From Malacoraja senta (taxonomy: Eukaryota), in the NCBI GenBank assembly GCA_038087875.1, contig CM075989.1:2852001-2916000 (forward strand): DNA of 64,000 nt. Reading direction: 5' to 3'. Shown in pieces: positions 38,203-62,987 of this stretch; positions within the stretch are counted from its first letter, which is position 1; the number at the start of each line of letters is the position of its first letter. Under the pieces are notes generated by a model, which was not told where the DNA came from, did no database searches, and saw only the letters and a program-made list of their open reading frames with translations. A program made the translations under genes and the position numbers.

Positions 38203-38402
38203 NNNNNNNNNNNNNNNNNNNNNNNNNNNNNNNNNNNNNNNNNNNNNNNNNNNNNNNNNNNNNNNNNNNNNNNNNNNNNNNNNNNNNNNNNNNNNNNNNN
38301 NNNNNNNNNNNNNNNNNNNNNNNNNNNNNNNNNNNNNNNNNNNNNNNNNNNNNNNNNNNNNNNNNNNNNNNNNNNNNNNNNNNNNNNNNNNNNNNNNNNN
38401 NN
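38203..38402. other. Assembly gap (200 N)
   Basis: Run of N. Confidence 1.
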
Positions 38403-41561: not shown

Positions 41562-41687
41562 GAATCAAATACACAGGACAAGATGTTAAGAAGTCCCTTG
41601 TGCCAATACGTGGGGAGCATTTCACGACATTCGTTGATTGTTGAGAGTGGTAGACGCTCAACATCGGGGGGGGGGGGGTAACCTTCA

Positions 41688-41830
41688 GGACAGTTGGGCA
41701 CAGGACACATCATCAGTAGTGTACCCTTGCATCACTGGGTGTTTCGGCCTTTTAACACTATACACCCTCCACAAGGGCGGCCCGCTGCAGGATGATCAAC
41801 CCTCAGCGCATGTCCCGTGTCAAACCGTCC
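41688..41830 (-). ncRNA. Permuted hammerhead-ribozyme-like structure, copy 1 (predicted)
   Basis: GGGUGU-A / UAGUGU ... GGCC-GAAACACCC ... ACACUA-CUGAUGA, closed by a 22-bp stem. Confidence 0.6.
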
Positions 41831-41837
41831 CAAAGAT

Positions 41838-44800
41838 TCACCCCGACATACTTGGGGCCCAGCATGGGTCTTTCCGCTTGAGCCAAATCCACCGGCTGCT
41901 TCTTTCAGCCGCCTCTGAGAGTGATCTTATGGTCTTCCGCAGAGCCTGACCGTGGATTCCAAGCTCCTTCAGCAGTCTGATGGTAGATGACGCAACAAAT
42001 CCTCTGCATCCCACTTCAACTGGATAGACTTTGGTGTTCCAGCCACGCTGCGTTGCCTCTGCTGCAAGCTCTGCGTAGCGCAGCTTCTTACGCTCATAGG
42101 CCTCCTCAACAGAGTTCTCCCATGGAACTGTGAGCTCTATGATGTAAGCAGTCTTCTGTGAAGGGGACCAGAACACCAAGTCTGGCCTGAGGGTGGTGGA
42201 AGCAATTTCAGGTGGAAAAATTAGTTGTCGGCCGATGTCCGCCAGCATCCTCCAGTCACGGGCCCTGCATTGGCTTCCTTCTTCTGATCTGGTGGAAGGA
42301 AGTTTAGAAGTTTTCTGTCCTTCTCGGACAAAGGTTATTACCCTTAGGGGAGGGTTGCTTGCTCTTGGAGGCAAGGAGTTGGCCGCACACCGCCTGTTCT
42401 CAAGGGCTGATGCCAGGCTTTTTAGTACCTGATTATGCCGCCACGTGTATCTCCCTTGCGTGAGGCTGGTCTTGCAGCCTACCATGATGTGTTTGAGGGT
42501 CGCTGGAGTTGGGCAGATGGCACAGGTTGGATCCTCGCCGTACCACTGATGGAGGTTCTTTGGTGATGGAAGCACGTCATATGTCGCTCTGATGATGAAG
42601 CTGATCTTGCTTGCTTCCATTTCCCATAGTTCTTTCCAGCTGATCTTCCTCCGCTCCACACCTTCCCACTGCATCCATTGCCCCTGTTTGGCAAGAGAGA
42701 CCGCCTTTGCACTTCTTGCGGCCTCCTCCTGTCGCCGCACCTCCTCAACCACCAACGTCCTCCGCTCTGATGTTGTGGCCTTTCGCCAAGTTGGTTTACT
42801 TGTCGTAAGGCCAAAGCCTCCTCTTCCCTGCTGGACTTGCCCCACTATGTCTTTGTGCCTCAGGGCTGATGAAGCTTGCTGTACTGCATCAGATGGTGTC
42901 CACTTCCGGCCAGTTGCTAGGGGCGGCGCAACAGCACTGATGATCTTGTCTCTAGAATCCCTCAGTGTCATCTGGAGTCTTACTTTAGAACACTTATATT
43001 CCTCTGTTAGACTAGTGAGAGGTAGTTCCAGGACCCCTTTGCCATAGAGGCCGATGTTAGTTAGACATCGTGGGACACCGAGCCATTTCTTCACGTATGA
43101 AGTTATGGTTCGCTCCATCTTCTCCACAGTTGTTATTGGGGCTTCATAAACGGTCAGTGGCCACATTGTCCGAGGAAGGAGTCCAAACTGTAGGCACCAG
43201 AGCTTCAGTTTCCCAGGCAGTAGGGTCTGATTGATGTTCTCCAGTCCATTGACAATTTCTTGCCTTAGTTGTTGCACCTGCTCTTTGTCCTTGAGACTTG
43301 CGTTATACCATCTTCCCAGGCTTTTAACTGGCTGCTCAGACACTGTTGGTATTGGGTCGTCACCAATACAGAACCTTGTGTCTCTAAGCACCCCCTTGAC
43401 TATGGAGATGCTTCGAGATTTACTTGGTTTGATTTTCATTCGGGCCCACTTGATGTTCTCCTGCAGCTTTCCAAGTAGCCGCTTGGTGCATGCTGCAGTA
43501 GTGGTTAGTGTTGTCATGTCGTCCATGTATGCCCTGATGGGTGGCAGACGGAGCCCAGCCCTGGTTCGTTCACCGCCCACCACCCATTTTGAGGCCCTGA
43601 TGATGACTTCCATGGCCATTGTAAAGGCCAAGGGTGAGACTGTGCAGCCTGCCATGATGCCTACTTCCAAGCGCTGCCATGTTGTACTGAAGTCAGCTGT
43701 TGTGAAGCACAGCTGCAGGTCTTGGTAATATTTCTTGACCAGTGTGGTGATGAGCTCTGGTACATGGAAAAAGGCAAAAGATTCCCAAAGGAGTTCATGG
43801 GGAACTGAACCAAATGCATTGGCCAGATCGAGGAAGATCACATGTAGGTCTCTCTTCTCCTTCTTAGCTGCTTGGATCTGGTGCCAGATCATGCTTGTAT
43901 GCTCCAAGCAGCCCGAAAATCCTGGAATTCCTGCTTTCTGTACAGATGTATCAATGTACTTGTTTGTTACCAGATAGGTGGACAGCCTTTGTGATACAAT
44001 GCTAAAAAAAGATTTTTCCCTCGACGTTGAGGAGACATATTGGCCGGAATTGGCTGATATCTGACGAATCCGTTTCTTTAGGTATTAGCACGCCGCCGGC
44101 CCTTCGCCAAGCCTTAGGTATTGTTTGCTTCTTCCACACCACCCTCATGAGCTTCCATAGAAAGCGTAACACATCTGGTGCGTTCTTATAGAGCTTGTAT
44201 GGTACTCCGTTTGGCCCCGGAGCTGATGCTGCTCTTGCTCGCCGGACCGTGTTCTCCACCTCTTTCCATCTCGGAGGGCTGGTGTCCATGTTGAATTCAG
44301 GTGGTTGAATAGGTGGGATGTCATGTGGGATGACCAACTGCTCATGCCTTTTCGTGTCTTTGTGGGCCTTTTCCAGGTGTTCCTCCAATTCCTGTTTTGA
44401 TGTTTTCAAAGTTCCACTTTTTTCCTTTGCGAAGAGGTCTTTGATGAACTTGAAAGGGTCTTTATAGAACCGTATTCTTGTGTGTTCTTTCTTCTTGCGA
44501 AGTTTCCTCAAGTTCTCTGCTTTTCGCAAGGTTGCCAATCGGTTCTTGATGTCCTCTTGGAGTAGCATGAGACCTTCTCTCTCTGCGTCAGTTGCTTTTT
44601 TCCATTGCTTTTTCAACTGTCTCCTCTCTCTGATTAGCCTCTCGATCTCCTGCTGCCTCCTGGACTTGATTGGTGTTGGTAATTTCTTTCCACCTCTCCC
44701 TTTACTCACCCCAAACCGTTCTTCTCCATAGCTGTAGATTGTGTTGCCCATCCTTTCAAGCTTTTCCACTGCTGTGCCCGTTTGTTGCTTCAAGATATGT

Positions 44801-45379
44801 ATAAGGTCACTGTTGACCGTCTCCCACTCTTTCTTTTCAACAGCCTTGGGCCATTTCACTCCAGGTTTGTGCCCTTTGATCTTTCCCTCCAATGGAGGTC
44901 TTTGTAGTTGTTGCGTGGGCTCCTCCACCGGCATTTCTGTGCTTGTATCACCCTCTTCAGTGACATGGGTGCTGATGCTCTGCGAACTTTGGTTTGTGTC
45001 CCCGTCGCTGTGCTTCACTCGACTGATTTGACTGGTTGCTTCGTAAGAAGTACTGGTCAATGCGAGGCCCATGTTTCTGCTCTCTCAAGCACTTTTTCTT
45101 CCCTTGGTGGATCTTCAAGCCCTTCACTGATGTTAATTTCTCCCAACCACAGATGCACACCTGAAGTTTGTGTCCCGCAGCTGTTGTGGATGTCTCATGT
45201 GCCATGCTCTCCTTGTCAGTAGTCGTTTCCGTTCCTGGGTCTGTAACCGTGTTATCAATCGGTGAGCCATCTTCCGCCCCCGCTCTCGCAGGCTCTAGGG
45301 GTATTCTCTTTATTTTACTTTTAGTAGCATTTAGCGGGTGTCTCCAACTAGCTGAAACAGCGTTGGGGACTGCTGTCAT
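41838..45379 (-). CDS. Zn finger / reverse transcriptase / CCHC / restriction-like endonuclease polyprotein (two +1 frameshifts; ~1179 aa if corrected)
   Basis: N-terminal 'CICG...GLKIHQGKKKC'; RT 'FRPICLLNVEGK', 'FLDLANAFGSV', 'GCTVSP', 'YMDD'; 'CAIC...KHIMVGC'; RLE 'RHNQV...RPDL...IELTVPWE...KKLRY'. Frames shift at the C4 run ~45000-45003 and the A7 run 44004-44010. Confidence 0.9.
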
Positions 45380-45638
45380 GGGTAGCTAGCCCATGACGGC
45401 CCCAGTGGGGTCTGTTCCCTCCTGTCAGCTGTCTCTCCAAGCTGTCACATGGACTTTCCCATGTTGTCAGCTGTCCTTTCACAGCAGTCACTGGACGAGT
45501 CCAGATTATCAGAATCAAATACACAGGACAAGATGTTAAGAAGTCCCTTGTGCCAATAGGTGGGGAGCATTTCACGACATTCGTTGATTGTTGAGAGTGG
45601 TAGACGCTCAACATCGGGGGGGGGGGGGGTAACCTTCA

Positions 45639-45781
45639 GGACAGTTGGGCACAGGACACATCATCAGTAGTGTACCCTTGCATCACTGGGTGTTTCGGCC
45701 TTTTAACACTATACACCCTCCACAAGGGCGGCCCGCTGCAGGATGATCAACCCTCAGCGCATGTCCCGTGTCAAACCGTCC
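45639..45781 (-). ncRNA. Permuted hammerhead-ribozyme-like structure, copy 2 (predicted)
   Basis: Identical to 41688-41830 (offset 3951). Confidence 0.6.
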
Positions 45782-46293
45782 CAAAGATTCACCCCGACAT
45801 ACTTGGGGCCCAGCATGGGTCTTTCCGCTTGAGCCAAATCCACCGGCTGCTTCTTTCAGCCGCCTCAGTGATCTTATGGTCTTCCGCAGAGCCTGACCGT
45901 GGATTCCAAGCTCCTTCAGCAGTCTGATGGTAGATGACGCAACAAATCCTCTGCATCCCACTTCAACTGGATAGACTTTGGTGTTCCAGCCACGCTGCGT
46001 TGCCTCTGCTGCAAGCTCTGCGTAGCGCAGCTTCTTACGCTCATAGGCCTCCTCAACAGAGTTCTCCCATGGAACTGTGAGCTCTATGATGTAAGCAGTC
46101 TTTGCACAAAAGAATGGTATATATATAGCAGTAAAGATTGGTAGAAAGGTGGAACAGGGGCACGTAGCCCCAGTGACCCAGGTTCAATCCTGACCTCTAG
46201 CGCTGTCTGTGTGGAGTTTACATGCTCTCCCTGTGGCAATGTTGGTTTCCTCCAACTTTCCAAAGCCCTATGAGCAAGGAGTTTTATTAATTA

Positions 46294-47093
46294 CTAGACT
46301 AAGTGGGACCCGTTGGGTCCCAGCATCACACGGGACGGCTGGTCACCAACGCAGTATTCCACCACTCCACCAATTCCAATATTGCTCGCCAGTGGGGGGG
46401 GGAGGGGCTTTCTGTTGCGCTAGTATGGGTGTTGCAGCCACCTGACAACCAAAATTCATTTTGTGAACACAAACTTTTTTAAAAGGCGAGGCAAACAATT
46501 GGGCAGCAGCCACCTGACAACCACAATTCATTTTGTGAACACAAACTTTTTAAAAAGGCGAGGCAAACAATTGGGCAGCAGCCACCTGACAACCACAATT
46601 CATTTTGTGAACACAAACTTTTTAAAAAGGCGAGGCAAACAATTGGGCAGCAGCCACCTGACAACCACAATTCATTTTGTGAACACAAACTTTTTAAAAA
46701 GGCGAGGCAAACAATTGGGCAGCAGCCACTTTACAGACGCATCGAGGGGACTCACCGTGGAGTAGACGTGCGTTCAGTGTTATTCGCAGCTCTGAGAGCC
46801 GTGACCCTCTCACTTCCTGGGTCTGGAAGAGACTGAGTGAGGCACTACACTTCCGGGTTTTATAGTCCCTCCCCCCTGCCGCCAGCGGGGGCAGCAAAGA
46901 GAATGATGATTTTTAAAAAAACATTAATATCTCTCTGAATTTTCATCGATGGGAAAAAATCCTCTGGTCCCGGAAGGCGGAGGGGTCTCTGAGCGAGGTG
47001 GCCAAAAATGACAGCCGTAGGTGGTGGCGTTCTCTCGGAAATCGCAGTACAGCGAGTCAAAAGCAGTCAAGATCAGTCTTTTAGTAATATAGA
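46294..47093 (-). mobile_element. Non-autonomous Helitron
   Basis: Minus strand begins TC (TCTATATTACTAAAAG) and ends with hairpin GGGACCC-AAC-GGGTCCC then ACTTAGT-CTAG; sits between A and T with no TSD. Confidence 0.85.
46434..46728. repeat. 72-bp minisatellite x4 inside the Helitron
   Basis: Unit gcagccacctgacaaccacaattcattttgtgaacacaaac...aattgggca. Confidence 0.95.
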
Positions 47094-61717: not shown

Positions 61718-62987
61718 CTAGACTAAGTGGGACCCATTGGGTCCCATGTTCACAAGGGAGGGCTGGTCCCCCAACACAATATTAAACCTCTCCACCAATT
61801 CCAATATTGGTGACCAGTGGGGGGGGGGGCTTTCTGGAGTGCTAGTATATGGGTGTCGTGGGCTGAAGGGACTGGTTTCCAGAGGGCTCGTATGGACATT
61901 GTGGGCTGAATGGATTCTTGGGCTGGCTTCAGTCACTCAAGACTGGTGTGCCAGCTGCTCACTCACTCATGGCTGGCGGGCTGGCAGTTGACATGGCTAT
62001 TCCTTGAAATGCCACTTCAGGCAGGGCGCAAGGCCACCAAACTCAAGTGCAGTTTCCTGCCACTTCAGGCAGGGTGCAAGGCCACCAAACTCAAGTGCAG
62101 TTTCCTGCCACTTCAGGCAGGGTGCAAGGCCACCAAACTCAAGTGCAGTTTCCTGCCACTTCAGGCAGGGTGCAAAGCCACCAAATTCAAGCCCGCTTTT
62201 CAATAAGGCAACACCCGCTTTTCAATAAGGCATCACCCGCTTTTCAATAAGGCAACACCCGCTTTTCAATAAGGCATCACCCACTTTTCAATAAGGCAAC
62301 ACCCGCTTTTCAATAAGGCAACACCCGCTTTTCAATAAGCCAAAACCAGCTTTTGCATTTTCAAACCAAAAACAGATTTTGCATTTTCAAACCAAAAGCT
62401 TTTGCATTTTCAAACCAAAAACAGCTTTTGCATTTTCAAACCAAAAACAGCTTTTGCATTTTCAAACCAAAAAACACTTTAGCAAGCATTTTCAAACCAA
62501 AAAACGCTTTTGCATTTTCAAACTAAAAAACACTTTTAGCAAGCATTTTCAAACCAAAAAACAATTTTAGCAAGCATTTTAAAACCAAAAAAACACGTTT
62601 GCATTTTCAAACCACATTAAGGGCACTCACAGTTTAGCTGCAGTATTATTCACAGCTCAGACTGAGAGACGTGACCCTCTCGCTTCCCCCATCTTGCAGA
62701 GACTGACTGAGGCACTCAACACTGCTGGGTTTTATAGTCCCTCCCCCCTCCCACTGGAAGGGGCATGGCCTTCATGGCATGATTGACAGGATAGAGATTC
62801 TGAACATTTTTTAAACATTAATAAATCTTTTATTTTTCATCGATGGGAAAAATCCTCTTGTCCTGCCCAGCGGATGGGGACTGAGTAAAATGGCCAAAAA
62901 TCGCAGCCATAAGTGGTAACGTTTTTTCTAAAATCAATATGCAGTGCAAACAGGAAGTGGTCAAGATGAGACTTTTAGTAATATAGA
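61718..62987 (-). mobile_element. Non-autonomous Helitron with 48-, 22- and ~27-bp tandem arrays
   Basis: Same termini as 46294-47093 (TC start, GGGACCC hairpin, CTAG end); A|T insertion site; arrays at ~62010-62615. Confidence 0.85.

Follow-up and report, generated by a model that had tools for sequence, protein, structure and literature searches.

A Hero-clade retrotransposon with partial tandem copies and a predicted hammerhead-type ribozyme suggests replication through an RNA circle

A 64,000-nucleotide stretch of Malacoraja senta DNA (GenBank assembly GCA_038087875.1, contig CM075989.1, positions 2,852,001 to 2,916,000 of the forward strand; hereafter the window) carries on its minus strand, at 41562..46102, an insertion of 1.15 units of a Hero-clade element lacking long terminal repeats (a non-LTR element), whose protein joins a reverse transcriptase (RT) to a restriction-like endonuclease (RLE). 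Across the genome, sampled copies of this element end at one fixed 3' base, and those longer than one unit repeat through a recurrent seam, each complete unit bearing a predicted hammerhead-type ribozyme. The best reading of these data, which we consider fairly probable, is that the RNA is cut by the predicted ribozyme, ligated into a circle and reverse transcribed in rolling fashion from an internal priming site. Read-through RNA from a tandem copy would be cut by the ribozyme to give a 3.95-kb monomer, which would likely be ligated into a circle. The circle would then be copied round and round by internally primed target-primed reverse transcription (TPRT), yielding one to three or more head-to-tail units with a fixed 3' end. 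Only copies of more than one unit, holding two ribozymes, would be able to make the next circle.

Structure of the insertion and its protein

The unit is 3950 nt long, from the leader start at 45511 to the 3' end at 41562, and its positions are numbered q1-q3950. Upstream of it on the minus strand, which holds all element features given here, lies a partial unit delimited by repeat alignment (45512..46102), with the C-terminus of the open reading frame (ORF), a ribozyme copy and the 3' region; we read it as a 5'-truncated second round. Realignment reproduced the direct repeat described in the original prediction, 594 bp at 41562-42155 against 591 bp at 45512-46102, together with its three differences: one substitution (41609/45559), one extra G in a G-run and a 4-bp deletion (41916-41919 absent upstream). 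The seamless junction described there was also confirmed. The upstream repeat runs into the leader without filler or poly(A) tail at the seam between 45512 and 45511 (45500..45525), and no target-site duplication (TSD) was found at the window copy, where the longest match was 4 nt.

The leader (45380..45511, 132 nt, conserved across families) precedes the ATG at 45379 of a single ORF (41838..45379), which encodes an N-terminal C2H2-like motif, the RT, a CCHC knuckle and the RLE, the zinc motifs being read from the sequence. The RT core lies at 43317..43916 (Pfam RVT_1, E 9e-19). The CCHC knuckle and the RLE (PD..E.K), at 41838..42530, were recognised from motifs in the translation and from a weak second-domain alignment with the RLE region of R2 (PDB 9nl3). 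The predicted ribozyme occurs at 41699..41819, with its predicted cut between 41761 and 41760, and again in the upstream repeat at 45650..45770, with the cut between 45712 and 45711. The two cuts are 3951 nt apart, which agrees with the monomer size of the original prediction, but the entire ORF that this monomer was said to contain is broken here into three pieces by frameshifts near 45000 and 44005. An intact ORF of 1179 aa is present in other genomic copies. In unit coordinates the predicted cut falls between q3751 and q3752, 199 nt upstream of the fixed 3' end (41562..41575), the putative internal priming site of reverse transcription.

With an RT followed by a PD-(D/E)xK endonuclease in one ORF, the earlier classification as an RLE non-LTR element holds; an RT and GIY-YIG endonuclease of the Penelope type are absent from the protein. 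We file the element in the Hero clade of the R2 group by protein comparison rather than by a tree with reference clades. In one stretch compared by eye, 49 of 68 residues (72%) are identical to the HERO-1_BF row in the accessible part of supplement 6 of PMC5678591. R2 proteins in the PDB are much more distant (E 1e-16), and named relatives come from fishes, lamprey, lancelets and a bivalve. Hero is described in the available text of PMC3636483 and PMC9004415 (with Kojima and Fujiwara 2004 as cited there) as an R2-group clade with RT and RLE and no target specificity. Target specificity is likewise absent here, as 104 distinct 3' flanks show a bias limited to T-rich first bases. The family is young. 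Many protein relatives are found on contigs close to one unit in length (3.7-4.3 kb), and near-identical DNA in sequencing runs of several organisms hints at wide spread or horizontal transfer.

Tandem copies share a fixed seam

Insertions were sampled from the first 100 of the 432 genomic matches to an exact 35-mer at the 3' end (control 0), on contig C1, which formed 76 clusters. Clusters L126/L127 and L120/L121 have identical insertions and flanks and are segmental or assembly duplicates; removing L121 and L127 left 74 insertions. L155 was treated as censored, as was L126, where a deletion removes the seam, and an unrelated upstream piece in L099 and a local duplicate in L161 were ignored. 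The 3' end was the same base in every sampled insertion and the 5' ends were scattered. The copies are therefore not circularly permuted, contrary to the permuted ends that the original prediction had proposed to look for.

Twenty-six of the 74 insertions run past the unit start, one of them by only 6 nt and one with its seam lost to an internal deletion. Two seams are crossed in three insertions, and an array on contig C1053 reaches the contig end after at least 3.2 units. The start point of the upstream partial unit differs in every insertion. An exact 37-nt seam has 109 genomic matches on many contigs and none for a reversed-pattern control, so that copies of more than one unit with the same junction do recur. 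At 29 leader starts we found an exact seam in 26 cases and a seam with two substitutions and no indel in one; the remaining two stand alone or nearly so. The partial tandem likened in the original prediction to Penelope elements and retrozymes is thus the rule for full-length copies, with 27 of 29 leader starts behind a 3' end. Insertions L101 and L152 begin at the leader start or no more than 6 nt from it, the place at which a rolling RT would come back to its own starting point. Of 30 seam loci, two (L037 and L041) have a unit that stops short on the downstream side, and in L116, L135, L154 and L029 the terminal 8 nt are duplicated at the 3' junction, as by re-priming when reverse transcription begins.

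Among 71 copies (70 insertions and the window copy), TSDs of at least 6 nt were present in 11 (4.8 expected) and of at least 8 nt in four (0.4 expected). A fixed 3' end and a minority of TSDs, the ordinary outcome against which the original prediction had been set, were thus found, but the junction recurs alongside them. The fixed 3' end, varying 5' truncation and varying TSD are typical of long interspersed nuclear elements (LINEs), whereas LINE copies of at most one unit without terminal repeats are not what we see, with 26 of 74 insertions exceeding one unit. The partial tandem instead resembles a Penelope pseudo-LTR (pLTR) holding a hammerhead-type motif, a likeness of layout and not of membership.

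The same arrangement was found beyond this family. Families B, C1 and C2 of the same genome have their own seams between a fixed 3' end and a leader, in eight loci picked as close pairs. Most of their units are internally deleted: about 535 nt in C2 (three loci alike), 830-850 nt in B and 1075 nt in C1. These mini-units (L312-L319; G000 C1:317687269, C4:78959655, C5:414938, C2:66933778, C2:29971876, C2:40644561, C2:120712358 and C5:65503729) are non-coding, keep the leader, ribozyme and 3' end, and lie in partial tandems; judged from their sequence, they appear to be retrozyme-like offspring of a LINE. A contig from another animal species (L178) has the same tandem layout. The seams of families A and B and of L178 align colinearly, with proteins about 54-60% identical, which indicates that the seam evolves like ordinary contiguous sequence. 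The first 130 nt of the leader (window 45420-45505) are strongly conserved among the three (85 of 146 columns invariant) and might serve in protein binding, as a promoter or in translation.

Contigs from three of four independent public runs (X1, X3 and X19) also bridge the seam. In X1, which is from another organism, this is one 3921-nt contig; since the RNA nature of that run is a guess, the contig supports the seam only and not a circle. Recurrence on many contigs and bridging in independent runs show that the seam is neither chance nor an assembly slip, and the private mutations by which units differ rule out collapsed or duplicated reads.

One template per insertion

Units within one insertion differ at 129 of 33,520 sites (0.38%), compared with 0.77% between insertions. 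At nine deep polymorphic sites, lineage alleles agreed within insertions in 55 of 55 comparisons where 34.3 were expected, a figure that overstates independence as the sites are linked. In C1053, three full units have five derived alleles in common. Such sharing of alleles rejects both independent self-targeted insertion and jumps among unrelated RNAs.

Truncation rose from 0.27 per kb in the first round to 0.67 in the second and 1.9 in the third (ratio 2.7, p 2.5e-4), as expected when the RT must displace its own complementary DNA (cDNA). Among 104 distinct terminal 3' ends, the next base was the leader's first base in 82. The match to the leader extended to at least 4 nt in eight (1.5 expected given the first base) and to at least 5 nt in five (0.24 expected). 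This microhomology suggests that the template does not stop at the priming site.

A predicted hammerhead-type ribozyme of unusual topology

The 3' region contains, in this order, GUH, GAAA and CUGAnGA, represented in the window copy by GUA (41763-41761), GAAA (41745-41742) and CUGAUGA (41716-41710). The core pattern has 1311 genomic matches against 11 for a reversed control. In an alignment of 17 sequences from about eight families, with L170 left out, N7 is U, A, G or C and H17 is A, C or U, a pattern of variation that is a hammerhead signature. Families with the motif extend down to about 40% protein identity. CUGAnGA, GAAA and NUH are all present, with stems I and III abutting, as in a hammerhead core.

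The hammerhead-like fold of the original prediction accordingly stands as a conserved hammerhead-type core, but it is not the standard fold. Rfam gave no ribozyme match in the window region or in six related loci. When standard type I, II and III folds and a plain type-SGC fold were tried by hand, stem II did not form: its first pair would be U.C in 17 of 17 sequences, and at most three of six positions pair. The strand before GAAA pairs instead with a strand upstream of the cut site that starts at G10.1 (stem II strand, 41782-41779). CUGAnGA runs into a helix, Pa (41819-41809 with 41709-41699), whose partner lies further upstream and is followed by a hairpin, Pc (41807-41784), leading to G10.1. 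A further helix connects the far sides of stems I and II and resembles the 'I' helix of Eckert et al. 2023. Our model places this topology outside the six published permutations, with two extra helices opening the A9-G10.1 step, and predicts a four-way junction of the core, Pa, Pc and stem II. A 3-nt bulge with tandem GA pairs, located between stem III and the I helix, fits what we take to be the kink-turn consensus.

The six-helix model paired 94.2% of 591 cells, with two-sided changes in 17 of 36 pairs; it was drawn from the same sequences, related rows inflate these counts, and stem II contributes only one covarying pair. None of 500 shuffles scored as high, and slid controls paired 32-44%. 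In L170, stems III (5/5), I (6/6) and II (5/5) and the I helix (7/7) are paired with different letters, and the locus has its own Pc and Pa. Single-strand folds recovered the nested skeleton of Pa, Pc, the I helix and stem III (z -1.3 to -4.3). On this structural model we predict that the motif cleaves itself. The Pc loop (window 41790-41800) is a palindrome, UGAUCA, in most families and not in L170, and could be a kissing-loop dimer signal or a tertiary contact. A scan of viral contigs with the core motif gave 72 loci, which are probably chance matches.

Replication cycle and alternatives

The strongest argument for a circle comes from the position of the cut. The priming site would be 199 nt from the 5' end of a cut linear monomer, yet copying went beyond the first predicted cut in 66 of the 74 insertions and beyond the second in 20. 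If the ribozyme cuts, the ends must have been rejoined. There is no scar, as an exact 20-mer spans the predicted cut in 88 of 89 units that cross it.

Several observations weigh against this cycle. There is no 5' end in the 37 nt after the cut, although with 1.1 expected the number is too small to inform. The 5' ends cluster instead 37-130 nt short of it, in a window chosen after seeing the data. In intervals that were likewise picked post hoc, 15 of 72 fall within q3789-3950, in the last ribozyme strands or immediately 3' of them, where 4.0 were expected, and none within q3690-3788, where 3.0 were expected (p 0.08). This distribution is more easily explained by a structure that stalls the RT than by a free end. 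The 55 agreements would be expected equally from a homogeneous tandem source or from gene conversion, later loss of long tandems by selection or recombination would also explain the rising truncation, and the 3' microhomology might be a target preference of the nuclease. Because insertions were sampled through an exact 3' 35-mer, 3'-truncated and old copies are missing from the set. The short derivatives of families B, C1 and C2 have merely 50-320 nt of a second round in the eight close-pair loci, and no long arrays. Finally, the strand after CUGAnGA is unable to form the usual stem II, and activity would require an undescribed junction.

The best-surviving alternative, which we consider unlikely, dispenses with the circle: linear read-through RNAs of tandem masters would be primed internally at the fixed site, arrays would be kept by unequal crossing-over in DNA, and the ribozyme would cut rarely or have another job, in translation or in folding of the ribonucleoprotein (RNP). 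It would explain why the seam is exact, why 3' ends show microhomology to the leader, why alleles are shared and why truncation rises; arrays of three or more units exist as possible masters, and no 5' ends are located at the cut site. However, daughters would never exceed the length of the transcript, and the repeats would erode unless rebuilt. An invariant core and covarying helices at about 40-80% protein identity are hard to explain without cutting, and there are several allele lineages, each with its own tandems.

We give still less weight to a cycle in which the ribozyme cuts and the monomer remains linear, with the RT priming 199 nt from the 5' end and, by an R2-type jump in each round, moving from the RNA's 5' end back to its own 3' end. 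R2 RTs do jump between templates (accessible text of PMC12222951), jumps within one molecule would also yield shared alleles, and the excess of 5' ends in the 162 nt before the 3' end would fit. But each of the 66 insertions that pass the first cut would require a successful jump, and no 5' end lies at the cut itself. Template jumps by R2 usually add extra bases, which weighs against this cycle, as do the 88 of 89 units that are exact across the cut.

A second, independent insertion aimed at an older copy's 5' end, a switch at the seam from one RNA to another and an assembly artefact are together very improbable and largely refuted: L101 and L152 start at or near the leader start, and many RLE elements are site-specific (PMC3636483, in the portion available), but lineage alleles agree among the units of one insertion in all 55 comparisons, genomic targets are otherwise diverse, the seam is exact in 26 of 29 cases and bridged in independent runs and other organisms, and private mutations distinguish the units.

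A circular, rolling cycle is thus the reading that we retain for this element. For the Hero clade as a whole, we put at about even the chance that its members are autonomous RNA circles with a seventh hammerhead topology, rolling internally primed TPRT and retrozyme-like mini-elements of their own.

Comparison with known systems

With Hero (HERO-1_BF, HERODr) the element has in common one ORF with RT then RLE, and no fixed target. We found no report of Hero or any other RT-RLE element with a ribozyme or hammerhead, partial tandems or circles in the literature covered, which excludes Repbase and the original Hero papers. The protein belongs to a known clade and the layout was previously described only from elements unrelated to it; the ribozyme topology appears to be new.

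Penelope-like elements (PLEs) form 5'-truncated partial tandems, or pseudo-LTRs, with a hammerhead in the repeat (PMC4209133, PMC8557442), and the cycle proposed for them comprises cleavage, a circle and reverse transcription of more than one unit (PMC4209133). The present element shares the pLTR-like tandems, a predicted hammerhead-type ribozyme in the repeat and the proposed cycle. PLEs have a telomerase-like RT, a GIY-YIG nuclease and minimal type I hammerheads that act as dimers, as well as inverted copies, tails of 30-40 bp and introns, whereas the Hero element has an RT-RLE protein and another ribozyme topology; no inverted copies were found among its 76 clusters. In animal non-LTR retrozymes, tandem units are cut by hammerheads into circle-forming monomers (PMC7229834; bioRxiv 10.64898/2026.07.22.740005), which RtcB ligates in vitro, and circles support the cycle (PMC7229834). 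Retrozymes are non-autonomous, 170-400 nt long, traced to PLEs and equipped with type I hammerheads, while the Hero element is autonomous and coding, with a 3950-nt unit; its own deleted derivatives of 535-1075 nt are the closer analogue.

The nearest ribozymes are among the non-circularly permuted hammerheads (SGC, CSG and GCS) from metatranscriptomes (Eckert et al. 2023, PMC10085705). Type SGC shares the order cut site, GAAA, CUGAnGA, the 3-5-nt linker from stem I to stem II and the extra 'I' helix. In the published blocks stem II directly follows CUGAnGA, whereas in the Hero motif the 5' strand of stem II lies upstream of the cut site and CUGAnGA leads into the separate helix Pa, with Pc in between. 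The searched text and supplement of PMC10085705 gave no animal or retrotransposon link for these hammerheads under the terms used, and no other paper in the literature searched uses the term 'type-SGC'. R2 elements with 5' ribozymes like that of hepatitis delta virus (HDV) also have an RT-RLE protein and a ribozyme that frees element RNA from a longer transcript. The R2 ribozyme sets the 5' end of a template that is linear and primed at the 3' end, whereas the predicted Hero cut lies upstream of the priming site by 199 nt, an arrangement that would work only with a circle, a jump or RNA left uncut.

Elsewhere in the window, minisatellites of 72 bp (46434-46721) and 22 bp (62170-62376) and a gap of 200 N (38203-38402) were noted, and the remainder is dense in repeats that we take to be CR1/L2-like and short interspersed nuclear element (SINE)-like.

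Significance

In the textbook LINE there are no terminal repeats, and reverse transcription starts from the 3' end of a linear RNA. Within the literature searched, the circular route has so far been proposed for Penelope elements and retrozymes and not for LINEs. The Hero family makes the ten-year-old hypothesis of a Penelope circle testable in a young, high-copy, protein-coding system, and Hero consensus annotations may have the wrong ends. If the motif cuts, it would be a hammerhead architecture beyond the six permutations thought possible, overlooked by Rfam despite more than 1300 genomic occurrences. The R2 group is now in use for RNA-only gene insertion; if our reading is true, internally primed copying of more than one unit would be a second replication mode for this group, and the Hero protein would be an RT-nuclease possibly able to use a stable circular donor. 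The same reading would also make this the first LINE with a circular template, in which the life cycle of Penelope elements would have arisen convergently with an unrelated enzyme and ribozyme.

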